Shown in pieces: positions 6,663 to 28,482 of a DNA stretch of 32,000 nucleotides (positions within the stretch are counted from its first letter, which is position 1; every line of letters starts with the position of its first letter). The translations under genes and the position numbers were made by a program. The notes beneath the pieces are model-generated. The model was given only the letters and a program-made list of their open reading frames with translations. It was not told the DNA's origin and searched no databases. The stretch is from Coprobacillaceae bacterium (GTDB lineage Bacteria > Bacillota_I > Bacilli_A > Erysipelotrichales > Coprobacillaceae), in the NCBI GenBank assembly GCA_963675915.1, contig OY780959.1, positions 870,001 through 902,000 of the forward strand, given 5' to 3'.

Positions 6663-7154
6663 CTATGATGACTTGATGTCTTTTTTTTCAAACAGACGCG
6701 GCATATAGGATATTAGAATCATCAGCGCAACCAGTGAAGCCAGAGCGATTTTTCCCTCGAAACTGACTACATAGACTGCCACATATCCCAGATATGGAAT
6801 TGTGAACATCGGCACCCCGACAATGTTGTTGAAGGCAACCGGTTTGAAATCCGGTGTATTGTTTGCATCACCTTTAGTGGTATAAAGCATATTTTCTTCA
6901 TCTATTTCAATCACTCGGTGAGTCACTAGAGTGTTGGCATTCATATAGAATGTAATCGAATCGTTCACTTCAATCTTGTCGAAATCCTCATCTACGAAAA
7001 TCAGACTTCCAACATGATATGTGGGTTCCATGCTGCCCGAAAGGACAACATAAGGAGTCACGCCAAACAATCTTGGAACATACATCATTGCCATAAAAGC
7101 AATGATGATAACTATTACAGTATTTGTTGCTATATTGATAACTTTACCAGTCAT
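6663..7154 (-). CDS. sipW: Signal peptidase I, archaeal/ER (SipW) type
   Basis: 163 aa with an N-terminal TM segment, VLSGSMEPT (catalytic Ser), THRV (His in place of the Lys of P-type SPases), TKGDAN and a C-terminal TM segment, as in Bacillus subtilis SipW. Its start overlaps the upstream stop (TAATG). Confidence 0.85.
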   Translation of the reverse strand: MTGKVINIATNTVIVIIIAFMAMMYVPRLFGVTPYVVLSGSMEPTYHVGSLIFVDEDFDKIEVNDSITFYMNANTLVTHRVIEIDEENMLYTTKGDANNTPDFKPVAFNNIVGVPMFTIPYLGYVAVYVVSFEGKIALASLVALMILISYMPRLFEKKDIKSS

Positions 7155-8038
7155 TACTCTTGGTCTCTTCTTTTCTTACCAAAGAATAAGAATCTAATCA
7201 AAATTGCCAGCAACAATAATGAGAAAAATCCAACTACTGCGATAGTGCTTGTATTCCAGAAACCGCCTGATGTAGGGACATCGTCATCGTCGATATCGAT
7301 ATCATCGTCATCATCAACGTCAGTTCCATCGTCATCATCAACATCAGTTCCATCATCACCTGTACCGTCATCGGTTGTCGGCACATCATCATCATCGATA
7401 TCTGTACCGGTATCTCCTTGGTCAGGTTCGACTACAGTAATTCCAGTTCCGGTACCCGGATTGATAATAACTGTGGTTCCATCACCTGCGGTATCGTCAG
7501 CGTCACCACCACCGCCACCTCCACCGATAAGGGTGTAGATGAAAGTGATTTGAACTCCGTCTTGGTCGATAGTTGCCGATTTAGCTGCGGCATCAACAGC
7601 ATAGTTTTCAATCTCTTCTGCAATCACACTGACCAAGGCTCCTTTTTCAGTAACCTTTACCAGTGGGGTTGCCAATTGATTTCCTTCTTCATCAAGGTAG
7701 TTTACCTGATATGTGACTTGATCGATAATTAATCGATACTGCGCCACGAATGTCTCTTCACGGGTGACTTCATCTGGAAGTTCCGGAGAATATCCAGTGA
7801 AGTAGTACCCTTCTTCAGGCATTACCAATGCATTAAGCAAATCTTTTTGAGTTTCATCAAAGACATCGCCGTAATCATAAACTGCGATCAGCTCATCATC
7901 ATCAAGGATCATTCCATGACTTCCGGCTTTAAGGATAATGTTATAACTGCGTAACGCATCGACTGGGGTAAAAGCCATAAACATCATTACCAGTGCACTG
8001 AGCATTACGAACAATGATTTACTTTTCACTTTTACCAC
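7154..8038 (-). CDS. Surface adhesin-like protein: signal peptide, Listeria-Bacteroides-repeat-like and MucBP-like domains, Gly6 and poly-Asp stalk, LPXTG-like C-terminal anchor
   Basis: The signal peptide reads KSKSLFVMLSALVMMFMAFTPVDA. PEEGYYFTGYSPELP...FVAQY is tentatively a Flg_new-like repeat, and YQVNYLDEEGNQLATP...ITFIYT is tentatively MucBP-like. The stalk reads GGGGGGDADD...DVDDDDGTDVDDDDDIDIDDDD. The C-terminus is VPTSGG, a hydrophobic segment, then GKKRRDQE. The start is GTG at 8038 or 8029. Confidence 0.7.
   Translation of the reverse strand: MVKVKSKSLFVMLSALVMMFMAFTPVDALRSYNIILKAGSHGMILDDDELIAVYDYGDVFDETQKDLLNALVMPEEGYYFTGYSPELPDEVTREETFVAQYRLIIDQVTYQVNYLDEEGNQLATPLVKVTEKGALVSVIAEEIENYAVDAAAKSATIDQDGVQITFIYTLIGGGGGGGDADDTAGDGTTVIINPGTGTGITVVEPDQGDTGTDIDDDDVPTTDDGTGDDGTDVDDDDGTDVDDDDDIDIDDDDVPTSGGFWNTSTIAVVGFFSLLLLAILIRFLFFGKKRRDQE
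7303..7357 (-). repeat. 24-bp tandem repeat (about 2.3 copies) inside the acidic stalk coding region
   Basis: Units 7303-7326 and 7327-7350 differ at one base. On the minus strand they encode GTDVDDDD GTDVDDDD. Confidence 0.8.
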
Positions 8039-8651
8039 CCTTTCTAATTAAGATGAGTACTGCAGCCGCCCCGACAATCAAACCACCGTAGATAATCGGT
8101 GAAATCGAGTTGTCGCCAGTTGGCGGAGTATAAGGAATAACTTCCTCAACCGAGAAGACTATTGCAATCTCTCCGGTTTGACCTTGATAATCGTTGTTTG
8201 CGGAATCACCATCAAGGTAAATATTGATATTGACTGTCATTGTTTCACCCGGCATCAAAGCACCAAGCAAGATATTGTTTTCAACTACCAGGAATTCAGA
8301 TCCGATAGTAACTTCATTGTTACCGATAATCGCCTGGAAGATATCTTCGCTGCCATCATCGATTGTGAATTCATAAACAGCAGTTCCATCTCCTTTTTCA
8401 GCGATATTATCAAGAATTTCACTGGCTACATAGAAACGCATTTCATTGTCACTGTCATTTACCAGATCAAATGTTGCAGTTCTGGTTTCACCAGGGAACA
8501 TAGTTGTAAAATCAATTGCCCCACCTTCAAGAGAAATGAAATCACCAGCTTCTCCAAGATAGGTAATCGTATCCGCTGCGGCTACATTGCCAATTGACAT
8601 AAAACATATCAGACAGATGGCTAATCCAAAAATTAATTTTTTCATTTTCAT
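8019..8651 (-). CDS. Secreted beta-sandwich protein, tentatively TasA/camelysin-like, with a C-terminal sorting-signal-like anchor
   Basis: The signal peptide ends in NVAAA. The PGE strand motif occurs twice (MFPGETRTATFDLVND and LMPGETMTVNINIY), and NNDYQGQTGEIAIVFSVEE resembles the camelysin/TasA C-terminal motif. The C-terminus is TPPTGDNS, a TM segment (IIYGGLIVGAAAVLILI), then RKGGKSEK. Confidence 0.55.
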   Translation of the reverse strand: MKMKKLIFGLAICLICFMSIGNVAAADTITYLGEAGDFISLEGGAIDFTTMFPGETRTATFDLVNDSDNEMRFYVASEILDNIAEKGDGTAVYEFTIDDGSEDIFQAIIGNNEVTIGSEFLVVENNILLGALMPGETMTVNINIYLDGDSANNDYQGQTGEIAIVFSVEEVIPYTPPTGDNSISPIIYGGLIVGAAAVLILIRKGGKSEK

Positions 8652-8659
8652 CCCTCTTT

Positions 8660-9280
8660 CTATAACTCTACTGAAACAATATTATCATCGTCAAATGTTG
8701 CAACTACGCCCCATTCAGCCAACAAGGCATCTTGACCAGCAAATGTTTGCACCGCATCAGCGTAGAATTCCAAATGAGCGATTGTATTGGCATATAAGTT
8801 ATGATTTTCATCAGTATCCAGATATGAATACTCTTCCAAGATCAAAGCTGATTCGCCAGGTTTTAACGGTTTGGTGTAGTAAGCATAGGTAACTTCGCCA
8901 TATTCATCACCAGGCAAAACAATCCAACCATCTTCGATGGTAAACTTGATTTCTTCAGGGTCGAGGTAATTATCAGGATCATCAGGTGTTGTCATGCTTT
9001 TGTTGTCTTGAGCGTCAGCCCAGTAACGATAAATAGTCACTCTGACATATGCATCATAATCTTCGGTGTTTTCAATCGCCACACTTTTGTCAACAACCTC
9101 ACCAGGTACAGCCACTCCATCATGGGTGCCGGTAACATTCAAATTGATGCCAATAGCGGCAGTTGTAACATCCTTAGTGGTTTGAAAACTGCTTTCGATC
9201 ACACCGTAAGTTCCACGAATACCAAAACCAACCCCAATCAATAAACATAATATTAATCCCATTGTTATTTTCTTCTTCAT
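8660..9280 (-). CDS. TasA/BsaA-like secreted protein, paralogue A
   Basis: MKKKITMGLILCLLIGVGFGIRGTYGV, then VPGEVVDKSVAIENTEDYDAYVRV and YADAVQTFAG. The other paralogues share the motifs PG[DE]xxxK...AY[VI]R and A.A[IV]Q. I preferred the ATG at 9280 (RBS AGGTGA) over the track GTG at 9289. Confidence 0.6.
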   Translation of the reverse strand: MKKKITMGLILCLLIGVGFGIRGTYGVIESSFQTTKDVTTAAIGINLNVTGTHDGVAVPGEVVDKSVAIENTEDYDAYVRVTIYRYWADAQDNKSMTTPDDPDNYLDPEEIKFTIEDGWIVLPGDEYGEVTYAYYTKPLKPGESALILEEYSYLDTDENHNLYANTIAHLEFYADAVQTFAGQDALLAEWGVVATFDDDNIVSVEL

Positions 9281-9304
9281 ATTTCTCACCTCTATATCAC
9301 TTGT

Positions 9305-9337
9305 ATTTTAACTTTATCCAGTCACATAGTAGTCACA
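9305..9337 (-). promoter_or_regulatory. Activator-type promoter P_A (direct hexamer repeats plus a -10 box, no -35 box)
   Basis: Minus strand: TGTGAC-tacta-TGTGAC-tggataaagt-TAAAAT. The geometry is the same as at 15636-15668, 15749-15781 and 28450-28482. Confidence 0.6.
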
Positions 9338-9359
9338 ATATTGGAATTTTAATATTTTA

Positions 9360-9407
9360 TTGACTATTGGATAAATTCTTTGCGATAATCGATAAATCTT
9401 GTATAAT
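9360..9407 (+). promoter_or_regulatory. Candidate promoter(s) of the transglutaminase/pseudopilus operon
   Basis: TTGACT (9360-9365), 18-nt spacer, GATAAT (9384-9389). An alternative TATAAT lies at 9402-9407. The RBS GAGGTG (9416-9421) precedes the ATG at 9426. Confidence 0.35.
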
Positions 9408-9425
9408 TAGAAAGTGAGGTGAAAA

Positions 9426-10349
9426 ATGATGAAAAAATGGTTACTAGTGTTACTTGCTTTGACACTTACAGGATGTAATGGCGCCATGGCGGCCGAAGAT
9501 GTCAGTCCAATCCAAGCGGATGACCCAATCGAATATCTCGACAATACCCCGGTATTGCATCTTACCAGTTTTGATGAAGCCAAAACCGAAGGTAATGATT
9601 TGGTCCGTCTGGATCTTAGTCATACCAGTGAAGGTTACATCGGTGTTCATTATCTGGGCGACAATATCAAACCTAAAACCCAGATAACCTTGCCCGATGG
9701 GACGGTCTACACTTACAATCTGACTGGGAACATCGATTATTTCAACCTACCCGAACCAAGTGGTGAATATACGGTCTCCATCTATGAAAATACGACTGGA
9801 ACCAAGTATTCAAAACTGTACAAAACCACCTTCGATGTTGAACAAATCAACGATCATATCGCATTTTTATATAATAACCAATTCATCAATTTCAATGAAG
9901 ATACCCTGGCAGTCGCTAAATCCAGCAAGGTTGTGGCAACGGCCACCAGTGAACTTGACAAAATCCAGTTGATCTTCAATTATGTGGTTTCCCATCTAGA
10001 CTACGACCATGATCTGGCCAAGACGGTAACTTACGGTTATATCCCCGACCTGGACGACGTGCTCGAAAGCCAAACAGGTATCTGTTTTGATTATGCGGCT
10101 TTGATGGCCAGTATGCTAAGAACCCAGAATATCGCCACCAAAATGGAATTTGGCTATGTCAATGAAGTCTATCACGCCTGGATCAGTGTTTACACTGACG
10201 AAACCGGATGGATCAATAATTTCATCCACTTCGAAAACGACACCTGGCAAATGATGGATCCGACTTTCGTCTCCCAAAATCCCAACAGTTCCAAAGTAAA
10301 AGAGTTCACTACCAATACCAGCAACTATCAAATCAAGTACATCTACTAA
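9426..10349 (+). CDS. Transglutaminase-core (Cys-His-Asp) lipoprotein
   Basis: Lipobox LTLTGC in the signal peptide. Transglutaminase-like core: QTGICFDYAALMASMLR (Cys), YHAWISVY (His), MMDPTF (Asp). Confidence 0.85.
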   Translation: MMKKWLLVLLALTLTGCNGAMAAEDVSPIQADDPIEYLDNTPVLHLTSFDEAKTEGNDLVRLDLSHTSEGYIGVHYLGDNIKPKTQITLPDGTVYTYNLTGNIDYFNLPEPSGEYTVSIYENTTGTKYSKLYKTTFDVEQINDHIAFLYNNQFINFNEDTLAVAKSSKVVATATSELDKIQLIFNYVVSHLDYDHDLAKTVTYGYIPDLDDVLESQTGICFDYAALMASMLRTQNIATKMEFGYVNEVYHAWISVYTDETGWINNFIHFENDTWQMMDPTFVSQNPNSSKVKEFTTNTSNYQIKYIY

Positions 10350-10362
10350 AGAAGGTGATCAT

Positions 10363-11298
10363 ATGAAAAATCAAGACTATGATTTAATAATCAGTTTTTC
10401 CAAACAACTTTATCTGATCACTTCCACCGGCGAGGACATCACCGGTGCTTTGAACATTCTCCTCGATTCCTGCGATGATGCCAAAATGAAAGAATTGATC
10501 AGCTCAATCACCGGAGCCCTGGACTCGACGACGTTGACCGATGCCTTGAAAAATACCGGTTTCTTCGATGACCATTATCTAAGTGTCGTTGATATCGGTC
10601 TAGTCTCAGGTAACCTCGACAGCATCTTCTTATATCTTAGCGACTATTACCAAAACGAAAAAGACAACCAGAACTTGCTTTTTAAAACGCTTAGCTATCC
10701 TTTGACAGTCACTGCCGTGATGGTTGGAGTTCTAGTGATCCTGGCAACTCGGGTTTTGCCGATCTTCAATTCAATTTATCAGTCAATCGGCTCAGAGTTG
10801 TCGGGAATTGGTAAATACACTTTGTACTTTGGCTACTTTATCAATGATTATTTCATCTATATCCTGGCAATCGTAGCGATTGCCTTTATCATCATCTTGG
10901 TCTTGATGCGCCTTGGCAAATTGGACTTTTTCAAGTCTATCCGCCTGGAGCAGCAAACCGCCAATGAGCTCTATGCCCTTTATAACCTGCTAAGAGCCGG
11001 AATAATTCTCGACGAGGCAGTCCGACTGACCTTCGGCAGCCCGGTGGAATTGGATCAGGTCATGGCTAAGCGGTTGACTCCATTGGAATTGCAATTGATC
11101 AACGTAGCGAGCACCACTGGTAACTTCGACCAGGTCCTGGAAATCCTGCACCAGGAATATGCCCGCAAGACCAGCACCAAAATCGATAATATCGTCACTA
11201 CATTTGAAATGAGCTTTATCGGCGGATTCACGGTGATCGTGGCAATCATCCTTTTGTCGATAATCCTGCCGTTGTTTACGATTTTGATCAATCTATGA
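10363..11298 (+). CDS. PilC/GspF/ComGB-like platform protein (T2SS-F family, short form)
   Basis: 311 aa with two degenerate T2SSF-like repeats (SFSKQLYLITSTGEDITGAL...VVDIGLVSGNLD and ELYALYNLLRAGIILDEAV...INVASTTGNFDQVL) and three predicted TM segments. RBS AAGGTGA. Confidence 0.75.
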   Translation: MKNQDYDLIISFSKQLYLITSTGEDITGALNILLDSCDDAKMKELISSITGALDSTTLTDALKNTGFFDDHYLSVVDIGLVSGNLDSIFLYLSDYYQNEKDNQNLLFKTLSYPLTVTAVMVGVLVILATRVLPIFNSIYQSIGSELSGIGKYTLYFGYFINDYFIYILAIVAIAFIIILVLMRLGKLDFFKSIRLEQQTANELYALYNLLRAGIILDEAVRLTFGSPVELDQVMAKRLTPLELQLINVASTTGNFDQVLEILHQEYARKTSTKIDNIVTTFEMSFIGGFTVIVAIILLSIILPLFTILINL

Positions 11299-11579
11299 AA
11301 TATCTAAAACTAGCGGCTTTGATCTGCATTCTTGCCACAGCCCTGTATGCGTTCGACCGCTTCGCCGGATTTGAAAAACGGACTTCGATTGACAATCTCG
11401 AACAGACCATCGATTACAAAATTATCCAATGTTATATCAATGAAGGCCGGTATCCCGGGTCCCTTGAATATCTTCAAGAAAACTATCAGCTGGATTTCGA
11501 CAACCAAAAATTTCAGGTTTATCTGATTCCCTTGGGGGGAAATCTCAAACCGGATGTGACGGTGATTGAATATGAATAA
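11295..11579 (+). CDS. ComGC/GspG-like pilin-like protein lacking a prepilin cleavage motif
   Basis: N-terminal hydrophobic helix MKYLKLAALICILATALYAF with no G/FTLxE motif. IIQCYINEGRYPGSLEYLQENY resembles the 'G.YP.sL..L' motif of pseudopilin globular domains. ATGA start/stop overlap with the platform gene. Confidence 0.5.
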   Translation: MKYLKLAALICILATALYAFDRFAGFEKRTSIDNLEQTIDYKIIQCYINEGRYPGSLEYLQENYQLDFDNQKFQVYLIPLGGNLKPDVTVIEYE

Positions 11580-12003
11580 GAAAAATTTACTTATCTTTGC
11601 GATTACAAGTATTTTTGTCGGGGCAGCCTTGATGGTGGCATTGTTGATTGTCAACAACTACCAGACCACCTTAACCACCAATCAGGACATTATCAACAAC
11701 CAATTGGCCTTGTCATTCATCAATGAAAACACCAAACGCTACGATACGGTTGAAGTTATCAAGAACCCGGAAGCCAGTGTGCTAAAACTTGATGATGGCA
11801 GTGGCTATTCCACCTACCTTTACACAATCGAAGAGTATCTTTATGAAGCTTATCTGGCTGACACCATGGCGTTCGAACCTGATTACGGCAACCAGGTTAT
11901 TGCCAGCAATCCAATCGATTTTGCAATCGAGAACGACATGTTGATTGTGACTGACAGCCTGACTTCGAATTTCATTTTGATCGATCTTGGAGGTAAATTA
12001 TGA
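11572..12003 (+). CDS. Pilin-like or minor-pilin-like membrane-anchored protein
   Basis: MNKKNLLIFAITSIFVGAALMVALLIV is a single N-terminal TM segment. I preferred the ATG at 11572 behind GGTGA over the track TTG at 11566. It overlaps the upstream stop by 8 nt. Confidence 0.45.
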   Translation: MNKKNLLIFAITSIFVGAALMVALLIVNNYQTTLTTNQDIINNQLALSFINENTKRYDTVEVIKNPEASVLKLDDGSGYSTYLYTIEEYLYEAYLADTMAFEPDYGNQVIASNPIDFAIENDMLIVTDSLTSNFILIDLGGKL

Positions 12004-12365
12004 GACGAGAATTTTCACTTATAGAACTTACCATCAATATTTTCATCTTCATCATCGTCATCGCCGTGGTCTTGCAACTGCTTATTGCCACTAACGAGAT
12101 CAATACCACCAACGAGATTGATGCCAAATCGACTTTGCAGCTAATCAACATCACCAGTATTCTCGATAATCCTGACATCGAGTTGGACGACTACTATACC
12201 CTCGACAATGACAAAATCTACTTCGATGAATTTAACCGAAATGTGACCCACGATAAAATGCTTTATTACATCGAGATTATTTCCGAAAACAAAAGTTACA
12301 CATTGGGCATTTATGACAAATATGACAATGTAGTTGATTTATTAGACTATGAGGTGGTATTATGA
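12000..12365 (+). CDS. Minor-pilin-like protein with a degenerate class III (prepilin) signal
   Basis: MRRE-FSLIELTINIFIFIIV has Phe+1 and Glu+5 as in type IV prepilins, but Glu replaces Gly at position -1. RBS GGAGGT. ATGA overlap with the upstream gene. Confidence 0.55.
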   Translation: MRREFSLIELTINIFIFIIVIAVVLQLLIATNEINTTNEIDAKSTLQLINITSILDNPDIELDDYYTLDNDKIYFDEFNRNVTHDKMLYYIEIISENKSYTLGIYDKYDNVVDLLDYEVVL

Positions 12366-12748
12366 GAATAAGACCAGGACTGATCAGTCTGTTCAATATC
12401 TTCATTGTTTTGATTCTTATTATCCTCAGTCTGATTGGATACACCAATAGCCTCAACGCTCAAGAGATTATCCTCAACAACAAAGAACATAATCTTACCT
12501 ATCTTCAAGCTAAAAGCCTGGCTAACGGGTTCATCAATAATCTGGAAACTTCCGGACTCGAAGAACTCGAAAATGAATATCAGTTCGACATCGATGGCTT
12601 TGTCATTACTTATGATATCGAACTTGATTATCAACAATATCTGCGTCTGGTCTACAATTACCAGACTCATGAGATTCTTCGTGAGACTCTGATCAATGAA
12701 TCGGACTATCAGGTTGATGACACGATACCAGTTTTCAAAGGAGAGTAA
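12362..12748 (+). CDS. ComGG-like minor-pilin-like protein
   Basis: MRIRPG-LISLFNIFIVLILIIL has Gly at -1 but no Glu+5, as in ComGG/GspK-type minor pilins. LTYLQAKSLANGF resembles the ComGG helix. RBS GAGGTGG. ATGA overlap with the upstream gene. Confidence 0.5.
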   Translation: MRIRPGLISLFNIFIVLILIILSLIGYTNSLNAQEIILNNKEHNLTYLQAKSLANGFINNLETSGLEELENEYQFDIDGFVITYDIELDYQQYLRLVYNYQTHEILRETLINESDYQVDDTIPVFKGE

Positions 12749-12749
12749 T

Positions 12750-13820
12750 ATGGATAACAACAATATGAACATAGCAGCCCTGCTTCAAGAAGCAATCCGG
12801 AAAAATGCTTCGGATATTTTTATCGAAGCCAATACGCCGGTAAAATTCAAACGCGACAAGGTATTATACGAACTGAACAATCAAAAGCTCAATATTCGTG
12901 ACACCCGCGAATTGATCACTCAAATCTACAAACATTCAAACCGCAGCATGGATACTCTGCTGAAAAACGGCGATGACGACTTCGCCTTTTCAATCAACAA
13001 TTTATCCCGCTTCAGGGTCAGCATGTTTTTGCAACGAGGTTCTCTGGCTTGTGTAATTCGAATCATTGCCTTCACCCTGCCTGATTTTTCCCAGCTGCAT
13101 ATTCCCAAGGAAGTTATTGAACTTGGTGATTATTCAAAAGGATTGATCCTTTTCACCGGTCCTTCAGGTTCCGGTAAATCTACCACTTTGGCTTGCATTA
13201 TCGATTATATAAATCATAATTTCGCCAAACATATCATCACCCTTGAGGATCCAATCGAGTATCTGCATTCCCATGACAAGTCGATCATCTCCCAACGGGA
13301 AGTGGGAACCGACACCAAATCATACATCAAGGGGCTGCGTGCTTCTTTGCGGCAATCGCCAGATGTCATCTTGCTTGGTGAAATGCGTGACCAGGAAACT
13401 GTGGAAGTGGCGATTACCGCCAGCGAAACCGGCCATCTAGTGTTGTCAACCCTTCATACCATTGGAGCGAGCAACAGTATAAACCGGATCATCGATTCCT
13501 TCCCGGCCAGCGAGCAACAACAGATTGCTTTCCAATTGTCATTATCTCTGACTGCAGTCGTTTCTCAACACTTGATTCCAAGTATCGAAGGAAATTTGAT
13601 TCCAGTATTTGAAATCATGGTTGTCAATCCAGCCATCGCCAATTTGATCAGGGAACGCAAGATTCATCAAATTGATACGATTGTTTCTTGGAGTACCGAG
13701 GACAATATGGTTACCCTCGACAAGGGCCTGATCAACCTTTACAATGATGAAAAGATTACTCGAGAAACAGTCTTGAAATACTGCAACAATCCCAAATTTG
13801 TCGAAAGCAAAATCAAATAA
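12750..13820 (+). CDS. pilT: PilT-family (twitching/retraction-type) hexameric ATPase
   Basis: Walker A GPSGSGKSTT, Asp box ITLEDPIEY, Walker B DVILLGEMRD and His box GHLVLSTLHT. The PilT-type motifs FPASEQQQIAFQLS and PAIANLIRERKIHQI (AIRNLIRE-like) are present. I chose the ATG at 12750 behind AAAGGAGAG, two nt after the upstream stop. Confidence 0.9.
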   Translation: MDNNNMNIAALLQEAIRKNASDIFIEANTPVKFKRDKVLYELNNQKLNIRDTRELITQIYKHSNRSMDTLLKNGDDDFAFSINNLSRFRVSMFLQRGSLACVIRIIAFTLPDFSQLHIPKEVIELGDYSKGLILFTGPSGSGKSTTLACIIDYINHNFAKHIITLEDPIEYLHSHDKSIISQREVGTDTKSYIKGLRASLRQSPDVILLGEMRDQETVEVAITASETGHLVLSTLHTIGASNSINRIIDSFPASEQQQIAFQLSLSLTAVVSQHLIPSIEGNLIPVFEIMVVNPAIANLIRERKIHQIDTIVSWSTEDNMVTLDKGLINLYNDEKITRETVLKYCNNPKFVESKIK

Positions 13821-14035
13821 CATAAAAGACATATCGTTTTTGTTTCAATAGTTAATACCTATTGTAAACTAATTGCGATATGTCTTTTGTTTAGTAGAAT
13901 CTATATTTAGTTTTAAGATTCGTCAAGTTTAGATCTCAACCTATTCTTGTGCTAGTAATTTTATCTATGGTTTAATAAAACTTTATATTGCACTTGTTAT
14001 GGATCACAGTATAAGTGTTTCTCGTTCAAATATGA

Positions 14036-14794
14036 TTATTCATATGATAAGATTTGAACACTATCCCAATCATCAATTCTAGGTGGAGTCCCACCGTCAT
14101 TATCAGGTGTAAAGTTATCTGCTTGGATAGCTTCAGCTGTCATAACGATTGAATATTCATCGTCAATATTGTAATTATTTAAGTCCATTCCAGGGAATGT
14201 TACAGTGGTAAACAATGTAACGTCTTCTGTTGCGCTTAAGATTGCATCTGAGGATTCAGCATCGCCAGCATCATAGTATGCAGTAACTTCTAATGTTTTA
14301 ACTACTGGATCATCAGGAGCTGCCGGTGCAGTTTCAACAGTTCCAATAACTAGATTCCATTCATTTACTTCGTCGATATTCAACCAAGATAGAACATCAT
14401 CAGGTTCAACATCGAGTGCAGTATTCATATCATTATCACCATTTACATCAGTAACAGTGATCAACATTTGAATTCGAACGTATGCATCTTGTGAATCTGT
14501 TTCAACAGTCACGACAGGTTCTTTTGAATAGACATCACCTGGCATAACATCAGTAAATGATAACCCGGTAAACACTTCATCAGGTTCTTCACCAGTAGTA
14601 GTTTCTTCACCGGCTAAAACACCTTCACTGGCTGCTGAAGTTTCAGTAAAAGAAATGTCGACATGACCAAAAGTTACGGTATTGGTCAAATCACCTTCAG
14701 TATCGGTAAAGTAAGCTAATGTGAATCCTGTCGCTGCACTAAGAGCCAATGCGATAGCCGCCACGCCAGCAACAACTTTTTTGTTAAATTTCAT
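14036..14794 (-). CDS. TasA/BsaA-like secreted protein, paralogue B, with a SipW-cognate-type signal peptide
   Basis: The N-terminus MKFNKKVVAGVAAIALALSAATGFTLAYFTDTEG resembles Bacillus TasA/CalY N-termini (GGGTFAYFSD). Also VMPGDVYSKEPVVTVETDSQDAYVRI and TAEAIQADN. RBS GGAGGA. Confidence 0.7.
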   Translation of the reverse strand: MKFNKKVVAGVAAIALALSAATGFTLAYFTDTEGDLTNTVTFGHVDISFTETSAASEGVLAGEETTTGEEPDEVFTGLSFTDVMPGDVYSKEPVVTVETDSQDAYVRIQMLITVTDVNGDNDMNTALDVEPDDVLSWLNIDEVNEWNLVIGTVETAPAAPDDPVVKTLEVTAYYDAGDAESSDAILSATEDVTLFTTVTFPGMDLNNYNIDDEYSIVMTAEAIQADNFTPDNDGGTPPRIDDWDSVQILSYE

Positions 14795-14875
14795 TTTTCT
14801 TTCCTCCTATAAATTTTCTTGTAATATGGTTTTTGTATTTTGAGAGTACAAGCCCTGTTGTCATTGTTAAGGAAT

Positions 14876-15604
14876 CTATTCTCCATAATCTGCGAAGCTG
14901 ATCAATTCAGCGGTATGATTATCAACATTGGCTGCTTGAATCGCATAGGCTTTGACATCGATTCTAAGATTAGGATAATATCCATCTTCGTCAGGTACAA
15001 TACCAGTTCCGACAGTGTTATTGAATCCCACTTGCATTTGAGCAAATAATGCTGTAGTCATATAATCAGTGTCAGTCAAGGCATTATTGTACACGAAGAA
15101 ATCACCTAGTTGATCATCAAGCGGTACGATTATATCCGAATTATCTGTCCAGTTAACCAGATCATAGTCTAGAGGAGTAGCCAGATAAGCTTCAAAATCT
15201 GTTCTGGTCATTTCCACTTCATCTACCGAATAGATCAACTCAAGAGCCACATAACAATCAGCACTGGCTGCTGTTTTGGCAATTGTCGGATCTTTTGGAA
15301 TCATATCACCTGGCAAATAAGCATGAGCTAAATCAAAACCCAAATCAGCTTCACCAATATAAGCTGGATTGGTTGATAAACCATGGTTCCAACCATCGAT
15401 TTCTGGGGAATCCAGATTGTCGTCAGGATCAGTAAATGCATATCCATCCCAAGTTTCTTCCCGCAAAAGAATTTCAACTCCAGAAGAAGCAGTAAATACA
15501 TTCGTAATTGGCCCTTCAGAGTCAGTCAAAAACGCATAAGACAGAGACAATGAGAAACCAAAAACAAGCAATGCCGCCATAAAGAACATTAAGATTTTCT
15601 TCAT
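14876..15604 (-). CDS. TasA/BsaA-like secreted protein, paralogue C
   Basis: MKKILMFFMAALLVFGFSLSLSYAFLTDSEG, YLPGDMIPKDPTIAKTAASADCYVAL and VKAYAIQAAN. It lies 81 nt upstream of paralogue B on the same strand. Confidence 0.65.
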   Translation of the reverse strand: MKKILMFFMAALLVFGFSLSLSYAFLTDSEGPITNVFTASSGVEILLREETWDGYAFTDPDDNLDSPEIDGWNHGLSTNPAYIGEADLGFDLAHAYLPGDMIPKDPTIAKTAASADCYVALELIYSVDEVEMTRTDFEAYLATPLDYDLVNWTDNSDIIVPLDDQLGDFFVYNNALTDTDYMTTALFAQMQVGFNNTVGTGIVPDEDGYYPNLRIDVKAYAIQAANVDNHTAELISFADYGE

Positions 15605-15635
15605 ATATACCTACATCCTTTCATTTCTCGTATGA

Positions 15636-15668
15636 ATAATAACAAACAGCGGTAATACCTAGGTCACA
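15636..15668 (-). promoter_or_regulatory. Activator-type promoter P_C1 (proximal to paralogue C)
   Basis: Minus strand: TGTGAC-ctagg-TATTAC-cgctgtttgt-TATTAT. Confidence 0.5.
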
Positions 15669-15748
15669 AAATTTGTTCAACCTATTTTTTAACATATGTT
15701 TGTTACGTGTTTCTTCATATCTTAATATATTAATCTCTTACTATCTAA

Positions 15749-15781
15749 ATTGTAGAAATATCCTGTCACATCAAGGTAACA
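15749..15781 (-). promoter_or_regulatory. Activator-type promoter P_C2 (distal)
   Basis: Minus strand: TGTTAC-cttga-TGTGAC-aggatatttc-TACAAT. Confidence 0.55.
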
Positions 15782-15810
15782 AGGACTAAATTTAACCGGA
15801 TATTTTCCGG

Positions 15811-15842
15811 TAAACAAAAAAATCGGGAATCAATCGATTCCC
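15811..15842 (-). terminator. Intrinsic terminator of the regulator gene
   Basis: Minus strand: GGGAATC-GATT-GATTCCC followed by a GAUUUUUUU tract. The stem overlaps the stop codon. A second small hairpin, accgga-tatt-tccggt, lies at 15795-15810. Confidence 0.6.
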
Positions 15843-17032
15843 AATTTTCGTGTCGTACAGGTTATGTAAATATCCTTTTTCTTCAAATTGCGGTAAAACA
15901 GTTTTTCAATCCGGCTGATTACGATTTTACTGTCATCCAACGAGCACATGCTTAAAAGACAACTGTACTGGTTAGGCGACACTTGAGAAATCGAATCGCA
16001 GCTGCGCAGATAGTTCTCAAGAACATTTTCCAGATATCCCATCCCGCCATTGACAATTTCCCGGTATTTCGGTGAATCGCAATCAACTGCCTTCATCATC
16101 TTGACTGTCACCAGCATCAAACTGGATTCAATTCCGCTTCTATTCGACAACCTTACTCCCAGATTGCATAAATTCTTAAATGCCCCATATTCGCATACCA
16201 ACGCATGTCCGACTTCCTTGGGAATGATATCGAATGTTACATTATCGATATTTTCACTTTCAGGCAGCAGCTGGCTTAAAACTTCCTCATATGTCCGCAT
16301 CAGTTCATTACTGGGAAGCACCCCTAATTCATGGTTTAAAATATATTTAGCAGTTTCATATTTCACTTTTGCGAGTTCAAATTCGCGATTTTCCCCCAAC
16401 GCCAGAATTTCATAACGATAGAAGTCTTCCTCGGTATGGTCAAGCGTCAAAGCATTATTGCTGTAAAAATAAAGATCATCAAATAACTGTTCATTGTACA
16501 GTACTTGCAAAAAATCTTTGGTCATTTTCAAGAAGACATTGTGATAATACAATGAATTCTGCATAATCAAAGAATCATAATCAAAATGAGCAAACAGACG
16601 TTCCCGATAAATCTCGGTAGCCTTTTTATAATGCTCGATTTTGATTGGTGTTGGCATATTCTCATTGATTCTAGTGATGGTATCATAAAAAATTTCAAAA
16701 TCAATAATCAGTTTGACATTGGAATTCCAATAATAAGTTCCCGAGCCGGTCATGATCAGTTCGGCATCAGGCCAAACTTTTTTCATTACCGTCCTGAGTC
16801 GGTAAACCAGATTTTTCAAAGCTCCAATCGGATTGGAACTTTCGTTGTTCTCCCAAAGATAGTCGCATAAATCCGATGAAGAGATGATGCTGTTATGATG
16901 ACTTACAAAATAATAAAGGAGTTTTGTAAGTCTTTTTGATTTCAACATCGATAAATTTAGTTCACCTTGCTCATTGCTGATCTTAAACTCACCAAAAGAA
17001 TACACGTTCAATACACAAGTATATTCCATCAT
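15830..17032 (-). CDS. SARP-like regulator: OmpR-type winged helix, BTAD-like helical domain and a degenerate GGDEF-like C-terminal domain
   Basis: FGEFKI...SKRLTKLLYYFVSHHNSIISSSDLCDYLWENNESSNPIGALKNLVYRLR is Trans_reg_C-like. HYKKATEIYRERLF...KYETAKYILNHELGVLPSNELMRTYEEV is BTAD-like. The C-terminus LMLVTVKMMKAVDCD...LENYLRSCDSISQVSPNQYSCLL aligns by eye with the GGDEF-domain pattern DxD..FK..ND...LR..D...R.GGDEF..LL, with SPNQY in place of GGDEF. Confidence 0.65.
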   Translation of the reverse strand: MMEYTCVLNVYSFGEFKISNEQGELNLSMLKSKRLTKLLYYFVSHHNSIISSSDLCDYLWENNESSNPIGALKNLVYRLRTVMKKVWPDAELIMTGSGTYYWNSNVKLIIDFEIFYDTITRINENMPTPIKIEHYKKATEIYRERLFAHFDYDSLIMQNSLYYHNVFLKMTKDFLQVLYNEQLFDDLYFYSNNALTLDHTEEDFYRYEILALGENREFELAKVKYETAKYILNHELGVLPSNELMRTYEEVLSQLLPESENIDNVTFDIIPKEVGHALVCEYGAFKNLCNLGVRLSNRSGIESSLMLVTVKMMKAVDCDSPKYREIVNGGMGYLENVLENYLRSCDSISQVSPNQYSCLLSMCSLDDSKIVISRIEKLFYRNLKKKDIYITCTTRKLGID

Positions 17033-25047: not shown

Positions 25048-25620
25048 TTATGGTGTCAATGTGACTCCCCAGATATCGAGGATATCTGCACCAATGCTAT
25101 TTACTTGTCGAGATGCAATTCCTTCAGCCAAAACTGAGACTTCCAGAACATCATCGCCAGGTTTATCCATATTGATGACTAGTTGCCCAGTCATATCTTC
25201 TGGATCCACCGGTAATGCATAGTAATAATAACCACCAATTTCTTGCCAATTTCCATCGCTTGCACCGACATTAAATTCAATATAGGCACTGCCGTCAATT
25301 GGTTTGACATAGCCACCTTCATCTTGAACTGTTGCTACTACCGCAACGCGGATATAAGCAGCAGTCAGATTCAAATCAGGATCATTGGTTTCATTGCTGT
25401 TGGCGATAGTAAACACCTTTTGTGCAGTAGTTTCGGTTTCATAAAAATCCCCACCGCTGGTTTCATAATAGGTACCATCTTCAACAACTTGAACATCGAC
25501 GTATGATGGATTGAATTCATTGATTGCATAGTCTTCGTCGGTAAAGAATGCGAATGTATAGGCAACGGAAAGTCCAATTATAACAAGAAGAACAGATAAT
25601 CTAAGAAATAATTTTTTCAT
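25048..25620 (-). CDS. TasA/BsaA-like secreted protein, paralogue D
   Basis: MKKLFLRLSVLLVIIGLSVAYTFAFFTDEDY is a SipW-cognate-type N-terminus. Also TAAYIRVAVV and VLAEGIASRQ. RBS AGGAGGGTGA. It lies 18 nt downstream of the VWA gene. Confidence 0.6.
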   Translation of the reverse strand: MKKLFLRLSVLLVIIGLSVAYTFAFFTDEDYAINEFNPSYVDVQVVEDGTYYETSGGDFYETETTAQKVFTIANSNETNDPDLNLTAAYIRVAVVATVQDEGGYVKPIDGSAYIEFNVGASDGNWQEIGGYYYYALPVDPEDMTGQLVINMDKPGDDVLEVSVLAEGIASRQVNSIGADILDIWGVTLTP

Positions 25621-25638
25621 TTTATCTTCACCCTCCTA

Positions 25639-28395
25639 TCAATCTAACCCAATGACATGGTTTCTTGCGACAGCCACATCACCGATCCATGGATATTGTG
25701 TCAATGTTTTGGTTGTGAAATCAAATTGATGAACATCATCAGTAACCTCATCATCAACCAATCCAGTACCATTTTGATCGTACCAGTTATTTACATAGTA
25801 GAAGACTGCATCTCCATTAGTACCGTCGCGGCCTACGAAGAATTGAGTAGTTGCCGGTGAATCAGGAGTATATTTATCTGCCCAATCATCAACTTCAGTC
25901 ACTCGATAGAAGCCTTCTTCAAGATACTTGATTGTTTTAGCATCTTGAGCATTATCCAATGTTACGTAGAATGTTCTTACTTTAGCACCAACAGGATCAT
26001 CAATATTTTCACCTTCGAATTGTTCAATCATGAATTTGAATCCTTGATTAGATTCGATTGGATCCAAACTTGAATATTCAGTGCTTGTTTTGTAAATTGT
26101 GAATTCACCATCTACGATAGTCAGATAGAATTCATTCAAATCACTTGGAATATCCTCATTATGGTAAGCAGCCCTCGATGTGATATCCACATCAGTTGGC
26201 AAGTCAGCCATAACTTTGGCATGGCCAAGAATCGGTGATCCGATTACATCGTAGTCACCATCAAATGGAACCCAGCTGTCATCTACAGGTGTTATTAACA
26301 AGTCAGGCATTCCAGTTGCAGCTGCCAATGGAGTTGTTCCATCACAGCCAATATAGTCAGCATCAGCAATCGGTGGCCAGTATACACTATCCACGAAGTC
26401 TTCATATTCAGGAACTTCACCGAGGAAGTTGATTGAATTTTGAAGATTGATTGTCGAATCAATAACTATAATTTCAGGATAAATATCGAATGTCAACGGA
26501 TTAGGTGTAATCGTACCTGAATATATAGGAGTTACGGTCACCCTTACAGTTACCGTTTTGGTATCTAACAATTGGGTAAATCCACTAACAGAACCATCGA
26601 TTGTGGTTGTGCCAGCATCAATAGTCAATGTTCCCAGGTGAGTGCCGCCTCCATCAGGGTCACCATCATAGAATGCATATGAAACATCAACATAGTCATT
26701 GCGGTGCCCACCTAATGTATAATCATCTGGAACTGGATAATAGAATCCTTCTCCTGGATCATTTTGACTGTAGTTTACCACACCAGCGACGATATCCGCC
26801 AATACTTCAATGCCACAGGCACCGTTGGTAATATAGACTTTCTTATCAACAGGAGTTACTACATATTGAAGTGGTACATCAATTGTCGGCACTTCGAATC
26901 TGTTGATTGGATATGAAGAGTCAGAATCAAGATAGAATCCACTGTTAGTTTCGTTGGTTTCTACCATATTACCTCCGATGAATCCAGGAATCAAATCTGT
27001 TGTAATCACGATAATCAGTTTCATACCATGATCAATTTCTTCATAATCTGTGTAACACAGATTTTCTGAATAATCAAAGCCAGAAACATAGACTCCATTG
27101 TTAGTTCCATCTACTACCAAAGTTACATCACCCGGATCCAATTCGGTATAAGTTGGATTAAATGTATATTCTTCAGTCGGAAGTCCTTCATCGAATATTC
27201 CAGTAAATGCCGAAGTGTATACTCTTACACTGTCGCCATCGGTGCTGGCATTTGCCAGGCCAATGTCCGATACTTCCGGAGTCATAATAACTTCAGTCAA
27301 ATAATCTCTAACCTGTGTGGTAACACCATAATCAGGTCCTTCGATATTTTCTTGAATGATAGTTTCGAATGCCGCAATCAATTCATCATCGAAATTTTCA
27401 TTACTAAATACGTATGCGTATTGGTCATATGGGGTTGTGTTGGTAGTCGCATCATAATTAGATGAAATAACCTCCGCGAATTCCCATCTTGAAATATTTT
27501 TTCCATCTCCATAAGGATCAGGGAAATTAGCATTGGAATAAACATCCGGGCCATCCAATGTCATTGCATAAATCTTGTTGTCAGTAGCTTCAACACTTTT
27601 CACAAATTGTGAATTGTCGTAGGTTTGTTTGAATTTGTTGGTTGAGTCCTTGAATTCAGAACTACTTTGACCAGGCAAACCATCAGTGTATAAGATTGTA
27701 ATGCTGTCTTCACCAATTACATTTGGATTTTCGACAATTTGCAATACTGCATTTAGACCTTTATCAGCTCTGGAAACTCCATAGTCATCAATAGCAAGAT
27801 TGTTGACGATGTCATAAGCAGCATCAGCTTCTTCTCCCTGCCCTAAAGCAAAAAATAAGTTTTTGGTCACGTAACTGTTAGAATATTGGGCATTACTGTC
27901 GTACATTACGCTGTAATTATTGTAACCATCATAATAAAGATTAGGTTCCGCTGATAAATTGATATAGTCCTTATAATAAAGACCAGTTACATTATTGTCA
28001 GAGAATTGAGTGAACGCTACATTCACTGAAATATTGTTAAGCATAATGTAATCAAGAATATAGATAACACTATTCTTCAAAACTTGGAATCTTGTCAAAT
28101 CATCACTAGGATCTAGCGGATCAGCTCCGGTCCCCGGTACTGTTTCCTCCATACTTGGTGACGTATCTAAACAAAAAATAATGTCTGGTAGTTCCGCATA
28201 GCTTGTATACTCTGCGGTAGCATATGTTTCTAATGTTATTTCCACTTTCCCATTATCCAAGAAATCTGCCGTTTTATACAGCACAACACTTGGGTCCATA
28301 TCACCTTCGACTGCTGTTACAGTACTAAAGGCGGTAAATGTTGCCAGAACCATGGCTATTGCTACTAAAAAACTTAGTATTTTTTTATACTTCAT
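25639..28395 (-). CDS. Large secreted von Willebrand factor A domain protein with CnaB/SpaA-like C-terminal module(s)
   Basis: 918 aa with a signal peptide. MIDAS motif: FCLDTSPSM (DxSxS) together with ILYTDGLPG. The C-terminal IKYLEEGFYRVTEVDDWADKYTP resembles the 'L.pG.Y.v.E...P.GY' strand of prealbumin-like pilin/adhesin domains. There is no LPXTG motif or TM segment at the C-terminus. Confidence 0.8.
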   Translation of the reverse strand: MKYKKILSFLVAIAMVLATFTAFSTVTAVEGDMDPSVVLYKTADFLDNGKVEITLETYATAEYTSYAELPDIIFCLDTSPSMEETVPGTGADPLDPSDDLTRFQVLKNSVIYILDYIMLNNISVNVAFTQFSDNNVTGLYYKDYINLSAEPNLYYDGYNNYSVMYDSNAQYSNSYVTKNLFFALGQGEEADAAYDIVNNLAIDDYGVSRADKGLNAVLQIVENPNVIGEDSITILYTDGLPGQSSSEFKDSTNKFKQTYDNSQFVKSVEATDNKIYAMTLDGPDVYSNANFPDPYGDGKNISRWEFAEVISSNYDATTNTTPYDQYAYVFSNENFDDELIAAFETIIQENIEGPDYGVTTQVRDYLTEVIMTPEVSDIGLANASTDGDSVRVYTSAFTGIFDEGLPTEEYTFNPTYTELDPGDVTLVVDGTNNGVYVSGFDYSENLCYTDYEEIDHGMKLIIVITTDLIPGFIGGNMVETNETNSGFYLDSDSSYPINRFEVPTIDVPLQYVVTPVDKKVYITNGACGIEVLADIVAGVVNYSQNDPGEGFYYPVPDDYTLGGHRNDYVDVSYAFYDGDPDGGGTHLGTLTIDAGTTTIDGSVSGFTQLLDTKTVTVRVTVTPIYSGTITPNPLTFDIYPEIIVIDSTINLQNSINFLGEVPEYEDFVDSVYWPPIADADYIGCDGTTPLAAATGMPDLLITPVDDSWVPFDGDYDVIGSPILGHAKVMADLPTDVDITSRAAYHNEDIPSDLNEFYLTIVDGEFTIYKTSTEYSSLDPIESNQGFKFMIEQFEGENIDDPVGAKVRTFYVTLDNAQDAKTIKYLEEGFYRVTEVDDWADKYTPDSPATTQFFVGRDGTNGDAVFYYVNNWYDQNGTGLVDDEVTDDVHQFDFTTKTLTQYPWIGDVAVARNHVIGLD

Positions 28396-28449
28396 ATATC
28401 ATCACCTCTTCAAGTTATATAGAAACATATATATTCTTACTTCATAAAC

Positions 28450-28482
28450 ATTATATTTAAGCAAGGTAACATAACAGTCACA
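28450..28482 (-). promoter_or_regulatory. Activator-type promoter P_VWA
   Basis: Minus strand: TGTGAC-tgtta-TGTTAC-cttgcttaaa-TATAAT. Confidence 0.6.

Follow-up and report, generated by a model that had tools for sequence, protein, structure and literature searches.

A SipW/TasA-type fibre cassette beside a transglutaminase-containing type IV pilus-like operon in a Coprobacillaceae bacterium

Do TasA-type fibre genes that lie back to back with a pilus-like operon encode one machine or two? The question arises from a 32,000-nucleotide stretch of a Coprobacillaceae genome (assembly GCA_963675915.1, contig OY780959.1, positions 870,001 to 902,000), which we call the window and in whose coordinates all positions are given. 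At 6663-17032 a first-pass annotation had read a SipW/TasA-like gene set, a PilT-driven pseudopilus, a transglutaminase (TGase) lipoprotein, and a SARP-like regulator as a single composite apparatus. Our analysis points instead to two autonomous, loosely coupled surface-structure cassettes, a SipW/TasA fibre system (cassette A) and a seven-gene pilus-like operon (cassette B), the second probably aiding, where the two are linked, wall passage of the TasA-type polymers made by the first. This explanation, which we prefer to its rivals, stands in our judgement at about an even chance.

Hidden Markov models (HMMs) from Pfam and NCBIfam were run over the open reading frames (ORFs) of the window, with bit scores judged against the cut-offs of each model. 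For comparison we used 80 metagenome loci obtained through a TGase alignment, together with named genomes, all annotated with HMMs built from the window's families; the closest relative, L001, served as the reference for identities and for ratios of nonsynonymous to synonymous substitution rates (dN/dS). The nearest named relatives are metagenome-assembled genomes of a Coprobacillaceae and an Erysipelotrichaceae bacterium, with HisS and RelA 79-84% identical. Close relatives of the PilC-like protein are few, and a closer PilC alignment led to two species representatives in a genome contig collection. All 14 genes listed in the first-pass annotation lie at their reported positions in the ORF map, and the HMMs agree. 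The searches it had proposed upheld the SipW, T2SSF, PilT, Transglut_core, Peptidase_M73, and TIGR04088 assignments; equally sound were its SipW-type peptidase (TIGR02228), acidic MucBP-like adhesin (PF06458), PilT-family ATPase (TIGR01420 and matches in the PDB), and SARP-like regulator (Trans_reg_C and BTAD, both above cut-off). Since dN/dS against L001 is 0.03-0.18 for all island genes, a sign of purifying selection, the genes are functional, and the idea of a decaying island of pseudogenes was ruled out by the same values.

Four distinct arrangements bring the two cassettes side by side. In the window clade they are divergent, and the window layout recurs in L001, L002, L003, L011, and L012. 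In a second divergent arrangement, that of Coprobacillus sp. (L004 and L016), the TasA side also includes the regulator and a pair of SipW genes, and the genomic flanks are unlike those of the window clade. The cassettes are co-directional in L088, where the TGase gene begins 10 bp after the end of sipW, and convergent in L069. A neighbour-joining tree of PilT, TGase, and PilC places these arrangements at no fewer than three positions. The first-pass annotation had held that its proposal would fail if the two modules never occurred together in other genomes; they do. Of the 21 loci whose operon is complete and flanked by 5 kb or more on either side, only six carry TasA/SipW genes, four of the six belonging to the window clade, and TasA genes are present at 10 of the 45 operon loci that have 5 kb or more of upstream sequence, again mostly in the window clade. 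We infer that this recurrence exceeds random placement in a genome of ~2-3 Mb, which favours a facultative functional link.

Each cassette also has a life of its own. A profile search with the TGase returned 2,850 relatives at E ≤ 1e-10, and an exhaustive search 1,229 clusters at 50% identity (E ≤ 1e-30). At loci with enough sequence beyond the TGase gene, the order TGase, PilC, s94, DUF4860, s121, s128, PilT is fixed, the exceptions being 12 loci without pilT at that position and two with the TGase gene last. The hosts are Coprobacillaceae, Lachnospiraceae (Dorea longicatena and Ruminococcus sp. OA3), and Peptostreptococcales (Acetoanaerobium noterae); those that can be named are D. longicatena (>1,000 contigs), Ruminococcus sp. 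OA3, Coprobacillus sp., and the cultured A. noterae DSL2. In Dorea, Ruminococcus sp. OA3, and Acetoanaerobium the operon stands alone. Its recurrent neighbours are regulators, not cargo: GGDEF genes at 23 loci, SARP-like genes at 22, and extracytoplasmic function (ECF) sigma factor genes at 21. Full-text literature searches returned no description of the operon, nothing on DUF4860, and nothing for PilT combined with transglutaminase-like and Lachnospiraceae. The TGase-pilus operon is a discrete autonomous unit and apparently an undescribed one.

For cassette A, a profile of the family of T210, one of its anchored proteins, has 549 relatives, of which three diverse ones were looked up (one from Roseburia sp.). 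All three of these outside lineages keep the order small TasA-like, T209-like, T210, MucBP-like, SipW, and in all three the cassette lies directly behind a sortase-pilus cluster (LPXTG adhesin, SpaA pilin, one or two sortases, and DUF5979) on Lachnospiraceae-type contigs (L097-L101). The neighbourhoods listed in PMC11580942 agree with a TasA cassette adjoining sortase-pilus genes. The arrangement in L097-L101 suggests a link between TasA-type and sortase-type fibres. Because most operon loci have no TasA genes nearby, the two cassettes are probably not an obligate composite machine, and the claim of a single apparatus is not supported in that obligate form; the stand-alone occurrence of both, the TasA cassette being likewise found without the operon, speaks against it. 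Since each cassette occurs without the other nearby, any dependence between them would be facultative or in trans.

The left operon and the outer TasA-like genes add a new member to the SipW/TasA (Bsa-like) fibre systems, with unusual C-terminal anchors, a MucBP protein, and a SARP regulator. The left operon lies on the minus strand and begins with T209 (8660-9289; start probably the ATG at 9280), a TasA/BsaA-like secreted protein that stays under the cut-offs of TIGR04090 (E 1e-4) and PF12389 (E 0.011; 16.0 bits versus 22.5); its family aligns with that of T252 at 96.2% in HHalign (E 2e-9). T252 (14036-14794, minus strand) is the only paralogue to reach the PF12389 cut-off (23.6 bits versus 22.5). 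It also passes TIGR04088 (20.9 versus 19), and its signal ends in the SipW-cognate ...LAYFTD; a profile of its family found nothing significant in the PDB. The adjacent TasA-like paralogue T242 (14876-15604, minus strand), with a signal ...SYAFLTD, aligns with the T252 family at 97.8% (E 7e-13). PF12389 finds no match in T242, in T210, or in a sixth TasA-like protein of 190 residues, T190 (25048-25620, minus strand; signal AYTFAFFTDE). By eye only, a SipW-cognate motif can be seen in T242 (SYAFLTD), T209 (GTYGVIES), and T190 (AYTFAFFTDE), and the HHalign link of T190 to the TasA-like families is weak (E 4e-4). The TasA-like paralogues proposed from the letters alone find support for T252 by HMM, for T209 and T242 by HHalign, and more tentatively for T210 by an AF2 model and Foldseek, and the proposed count of five has to be raised by T190, which lies outside the region first annotated.

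Between T209 and the peptidase gene lie two anchored proteins. T210 (8019-8651, minus strand; start probably 8645) has no match in the Pfam and NCBIfam scans and was assigned a putative TasA fold by alignments and by AF2 and Foldseek. Its signal peptide and beta-sandwich are followed by an invariant C-terminal stretch of TGD motif, transmembrane segment, and basic RKGGKxEK tail, which looks like a candidate sorting signal. The AF2 model, built on a 67-sequence alignment, has a predicted local distance difference test score (pLDDT) of 71. In Foldseek against the PDB its top match is the TasA fibre 8aur (E 6.5e-4, at a template-modelling score of only 0.36), the archaeal bundling pilin AbpA (7ueg) ranking fifth; HHalign gives 84% against the T209 family, and one orthologue is named LPXTG-anchor protein in its source record. 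The MucBP-domain protein (7154-8038, minus strand; PF06458 25.6 bits versus 23) is a putative anchored adhesin laid out as signal peptide, MucBP domain, acidic low-complexity linker, conserved D-D-E-x-P, C-terminal transmembrane segment, and basic tail, and its family also occurs in the TasA cassettes linked to sortase genes. The last gene (6663-7154, minus strand) encodes a signal peptidase I of the SipW (archaeal/endoplasmic reticulum) type, which scores 111.9 bits with TIGR02228 (cut-off 51.85), stays below the Bacillus SipW equivalog NF046067 (107.9 versus 190), and is encoded together with its substrates.

The outer TasA-like genes are hypervariable. T252 is 46% and T242 45% identical to its L001 orthologue, against 99% for the flanking genes. 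Flanking HisS and RelA, 99% identical to those of L001, have dS of 0.2-0.4, and the island genes have dS of 0.35-4.3. Across 14036-15604 identity is 45-46%, and dN/dS is below 0.2 throughout the island. These values point to allelic replacement or to diversifying turnover among the exposed subunits.

The central operon, on the plus strand, falls within the type IV filament superfamily, where it represents a new form. Its first gene (9426-10349) encodes a Transglut_core lipoprotein (PF01841, 66.3 bits). The lipobox Cys17 is invariant in a 7-sequence alignment and nearly so in a 40-sequence alignment, and Cys220, His250, and Asp278 are invariant in both. An AF2 model (pLDDT 83) has an N-terminal beta-sandwich and a transglutaminase core, with matches in the PDB to the putative cysteine protease 3isr, TG2, TglA (9crn), and LapG; a literature search on Streptococcus pyogenes TglA returned nothing. 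Its conserved residues indicate a protein that is probably catalytically intact and that may act as a cross-linker or a protease. We also considered this protein as a stand-in prepilin peptidase and rejected it, since a lipoprotein would face outward and prepilin cleavage is cytoplasmic. The next gene (10363-11298) encodes a short PilC/GspF-type platform protein of 311 residues (PF00482, 91 bits over two stretches), which measures 346-350 residues in other lineages and stays far under the cut-offs of the ComGB and PilC equivalogs. The last gene (12750-13820) encodes a hexameric ATPase of the PilT family, the only ATPase in the cluster: TIGR01420 gives 412 bits (cut-off 319) and PF00437 175.6, and in the PDB the Aquifex PilT retraction ATPase 2ewv (E 2e-91) stands far ahead of PilB/GspE (~1e-28). 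The longest ORF runs from 12696, and the true start is probably 12750, which gives 356 residues and no overlap with s128. No PilB/GspE-type extension ATPase was found among the window ORFs, nor an extra one by HMM annotation of the loci, and PilMNO are absent from the window.

Four small membrane proteins lie between platform and ATPase, and all four had been proposed as pilin-like. That proposal stands for s121 and s128, the only two with class-III-type N-termini across their families, and is weak for s94 and the DUF4860 protein. The prepilin motif models PF07963 and TIGR02532 match none of the four window proteins even at E ≤ 10, and none of 41 members of the s121 family. The N-terminus of s121 (12000-12365) is MRRE/FSLIEL (the slash separating positions -1 and +1), with Glu at +5 (E5) kept and -1 degenerate. 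Across the family, a basic leader runs into the consensus [KR]-S-[GS]/LFLMELIIAILFF, which keeps Glu at +5 and has a small residue at -1. Members of the window clade have E, D, K, or G at -1 instead of a conserved Gly, and the word degenerate, used of this pseudopilus in the first-pass annotation, is apt. The Acetoanaerobium orthologue (MNKRNG/FTLIE) passes both models (28.4 versus 21.2 and 23 versus 16.3). A deep profile of s121 against the PDB has type IV pilins in all of its top seven places, in register and each individually weak. Judged by sequence, s121 is a type IV pilin, canonical in Acetoanaerobium and degenerate in the window. The protein s128 (12362-12748) is minor-pseudopilin-like: its basic leader is followed by an invariant Gly and then by a hydrophobic helix lacking E5, the pattern of E5-less minor pseudopilins such as GspK. 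The bitopic s94 (11295-11579), possibly pilin-like, carries the motif CYxxEGxYPxSLxYL...NxMPDxTV; its deep profile finds nothing significant in the PDB, only weak matches (E 0.5-0.8) that include three type IV pilins over alpha-1. The DUF4860 protein (11566-12003; PF16152, 39.7 bits) has an N-terminal transmembrane segment, no cleavage motif, and a constant place in the operon across loci.

SARPs are best known as regulators in Streptomyces. The SARP-like activator of the island (15830-17032, minus strand) has a winged-helix Trans_reg_C domain (PF00486, 29.3 bits versus 26.2), a BTAD domain (PF03704, 31.5 versus 22.1), and a C-terminal extension of ~150 residues without a recognized domain. 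In the divergent spacer, AGTCACA-N4-AGTCACA (9320-9337) forms an exact heptad repeat with an 11-bp period in place of the -35 element of the T209 promoter; in the classical SARP operator, too, heptamers are directly repeated every 11 bp and overlap the -35 (PMC10972967). Read on the minus strand, the predicted SARP-dependent promoter of the left operon (9305-9337) is TGTGACT-ACTA-TGTGACT (9337-9320), 9 nt, and TAAAAT (9310-9305). This box is conserved in L001, L002, L011, and L012, and also 5′ of the T209 homologue in L004, where the spacer around it differs from that of the window. A second predicted promoter (15749-15781, minus strand; TGTTACC-TTGA-TGTGACA, 9 nt, TACAAT) precedes the genes at 14876 and 14036, with equivalent boxes at one to three mismatches in L001, L002, L011, and L012, and a third (28482-28450, minus strand; TGTGACT-GTTA-TGTTACC, 9 nt, TATAAT) precedes the genes for a VWA protein and T190. 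The box-plus-(-10) pattern (TGTGACT-N4-TGTGACT-N9-TAnnAT type) occurs three times in 32 kb against 0.25 expected, a number that none of 100 random sequences reached, and all three lie directly upstream of the window's three TasA-like operons. From these motifs we predict that this Firmicute has a SARP-type regulon, whose operator they define. The TGase-pilus operon has a sigma-70-like promoter (9380-9407, plus strand; TTGCGA, 16 nt, TATAAT within a conserved cTTGTATAAT), with a -10 block that L001, L002, L012, and L004 have kept and that L016 has kept in part (GAGTATAAT). Because this operon has a promoter of its own, co-regulation with the TasA genes is only possible; a de novo search for heptad repeats with a -10 upstream of the TGase gene found none in 21 other loci.

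How do these observations bear on two loosely coupled cassettes? The proposed aid of cassette B to TasA export matches a report from Clostridium perfringens, a 2025 preprint in which PilA3, PilB2, PilC1, PilD, and PilMNO are needed for efficient secretion of BsaC, and secreted BsaA oligomers are partly reduced in type IV pilus mutants, a less conclusive effect (PMC11580942). The claim that no described system has this composition is in part dated: the preprint is a precedent for pilus-aided secretion, and no paper was found on the TGase-PilT operon. Several observations weigh against the proposed aid. In C. perfringens PilT is not required for BsaC secretion (PMC11580942), and PilT is the sole ATPase here. 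No prepilin peptidase (PilD/ComC) was found among the window ORFs or among the called genes of the named-contig loci, the window s121 has lost its small -1 residue, and the case for s94 and DUF4860 as pilin-like is weak. Of the 21 fully flanked operon loci, 15 have no TasA/SipW genes nearby, and a regular-expression scan of all loci found no hidden SipW-cognate signals beyond the recognized cassettes; conversely, no pilus-like operon lies within 10 kb of the TasA cassette in the three outside lineages. The SARP boxes precede the TasA operons and leave the TGase operon to its own sigma-70-like promoter, and in Lachnospiraceae loci with an adjacent SARP gene no SARP box was found 5′ of the TGase gene.

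At one extreme, all 14 genes would form an obligate machine in which the PilT pseudopilus is the motor of TasA fibres and the TGase cross-links or processes them. The recurrent adjacency in four arrangements and its operon-like fusion in L088, a divergent control region that both operons share and that carries a SARP box, the intact TGase active site, and the pilus-assisted secretion of TasA-family or associated proteins in C. perfringens all speak for it. We nevertheless think it unlikely, given the frequency of operons without TasA/SipW genes, the occurrence of the TasA cassette with sortase pili in place of the operon, and the TGase itself, which always accompanies the operon where it stands alone and so cannot have TasA as its conserved substrate. 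At the other extreme, two unrelated systems would merely share a hypervariable surface-gene island, a recombination hotspot, without cooperating. Elsewhere each cassette occurs on its own, predicted SARP boxes lie before TasA operons only, and the elevated dS of the island together with the ~45% identity of T252 and T242 between near-identical genomes suggests frequent allelic exchange. This account is doubtful, if a shade less so than the obligate machine, for four arrangements at three or more tree positions are improbable by chance if each cassette could insert at any point of a ~2.6-Mb genome (on a rough expectation of <1% per lineage), and in L088 the TGase gene follows sipW immediately on the same strand.

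A further alternative concerns the seven-gene operon alone, which might be a divergent ComG-like pseudopilus for DNA uptake. The parts lists are alike (one ATPase, one platform, and several small pilin-like proteins), and the Acetoanaerobium pilin weakly matches ComGE, ComGF, and ComGD. Against this stand the failed equivalog cut-offs, on which we rejected a ComG identity for the operon (ComGA 149.5 versus 300 and ComGB 65.8 versus 240, set beside PilT at 412 versus 319), the window's small proteins, which match none of the ComGC-GG models, and the neighbourhood, in which ComE and ComF genes are absent and GGDEF, ECF sigma, and SARP regulators recur. Com systems have nothing that corresponds to a lipoprotein TGase, and we regard this alternative as highly improbable. 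More speculatively, the operon could be an unrecognized class of Gram-positive type IV filament, with PilT powering a wall-spanning piston and the TGase covalently attaching or releasing cargo, that was captured in Coprobacillaceae and a few Lachnospiraceae-like lineages as a dedicated exporter of SipW/TasA fibres; we think this improbable as well, to about the same degree as the obligate machine.

Under the explanation that we prefer, two loosely coupled cassettes, cassette A would be a SipW-dependent fibre system of the TasA/BsaA family. The SARP-like activator would bind the TGTGACT-N4-TGTGACT boxes, each set 9 nt ahead of a -10 element without a -35, and turn on the T209-T210-MucBP-SipW, T242-T252, and VWA plus sixth TasA-like operons. 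The TasA-like precursors would leave through Sec, SipW would remove their special signal peptides, and the subunits might, by analogy with their homologues, polymerize by donor-strand exchange. T210, with its TGD motif and transmembrane tail, and the MucBP protein would remain cell-bound as base and adhesin, and hypervariable T252 and T242 would be exposed subunits. Cassette B would be a compact type IV filament operon in which the PilC-type platform and the single PilT-family ATPase drive a short pilus or pseudopilus, built of s121 (with its E5) and primed by the E5-less s128, with s94 and DUF4860 as pilin-like or accessory membrane parts. The TGase lipoprotein would act at the outer face of the membrane, on the filament, the wall, or cargo. 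In most hosts cassette B presumably works alone; where recruited beside cassette A, it would most likely move bulky TasA-type polymers or the VWA protein across the peptidoglycan.

Like the Bacillus fibre operons (B. subtilis tapA-sipW-tasA and B. cereus sipW-tasA-calY), the window encodes SipW with several SipW-cognate proteins of the TasA/camelysin family and has one cell-anchored paralogue in a putative TapA-like role, T210, whose modelled fold looks TasA-like. However, no TapA homologue was detected in the window, which has six paralogues in three operons, TGD/transmembrane anchors, and a MucBP adhesin, and its regulator is of the SARP type rather than SinR/Spo0A, with a SipW under the Bacillus equivalog cut-off. 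The C. perfringens bsa operon (sipW-bsaA-bsaB-bsaC) is similar in its SipW, its remote TasA homologues, and its VWA protein, and there too type IV pilus components are proposed to move proteins through peptidoglycan. It differs in that a full canonical pilus set is encoded elsewhere and PilT is dispensable, whereas the window has a minimal PilT-only operon with a TGase beside the fibre genes. The type IV filaments in general (type IVa pili, type II secretion systems, and ComG) share with cassette B a PilC/GspF platform, an ATPase of the PilT/GspE superfamily, and an E5 pilin, and s128 is GspK-like in being an E5-less minor pilin with an invariant Gly. Cassette B is set apart by a sole ATPase of the retraction (PilT) family, by an operon without PilB/GspE, PilD, or PilMNO, and by a seven-gene set that always includes the TGase-like lipoprotein, DUF4860, and s94.

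With the Streptomyces SARPs the window regulator has in common an OmpR-type winged helix, a BTAD domain, and predicted heptamer repeats of 11-bp period that replace the -35 (PMC10972967); unlike them, it has a Firmicute host, surface-fibre genes in place of antibiotic clusters, and the C-terminal extra region. LapG proteases share with the TGase a Cys-His-Asp transglutaminase-like core outside the cytoplasmic membrane, and GGDEF genes often precede the operon. The structural similarity to LapG is moderate, however, no LapD-like receptor is present, and the window protein is a lipoprotein with an N-terminal beta-sandwich. The passage of folded or polymerized proteins through the thick wall of Gram-positive cells is a standing problem. 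The sole direct evidence for a pilus-assisted route is the one C. perfringens preprint, and pilus and fibre genes are unlinked there; the window locus and its relatives are natural fusions of a minimal pilus machine with TasA fibre genes, which makes the idea directly testable. The operon is common in human-gut Firmicutes, including D. longicatena.

Some further observations concern the surroundings of the two cassettes. Upstream of the TGase operon and on the same strand, GGDEF/EAL genes and ECF sigma genes with a putative anti-sigma are common (L013/L014, L008, and about 20 more loci), which hints at control of the operon by cyclic di-GMP (c-di-GMP) or envelope stress; LapG is a c-di-GMP-controlled transglutaminase-like protease. 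At L045, L046, L059, L070-L072, L079, L082, L087, L091, and L096 the operon ends after s128, a convergent rpoC comes next, and the locus has no pilT, so that the ATPase must either come from another place in the genome or be dispensable. In the variant with the TGase gene last (L102 and L076) the order is PilC, s94, DUF4860, pilin, s128, PilT, TGase. L102 is A. noterae DSL2 (NZ_CP154629: 964164-982952), a 2.6-Mb replicon that is filed as a plasmid and nearly unannotated in PLSDB. Beyond the regulator, the 918-residue VWA protein (25639-28395, minus strand) also lies outside the region first annotated, with the T190 gene 3′ of its own. This pairing at 25048-28482 resembles that of the VWA protein BsaC in C. 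perfringens, and the locus is a probable outlying member of the predicted SARP regulon. A 14-bp terminator-like hairpin (15818-15849) lies over the stop codon of the regulator gene and could terminate in both directions. Just 3′ of pilT, at 13824-13888, there is a perfect 13-nt inverted repeat (AAAAGACATATCG ... CGATATGTCTTTT) with its arms 39 nt apart.

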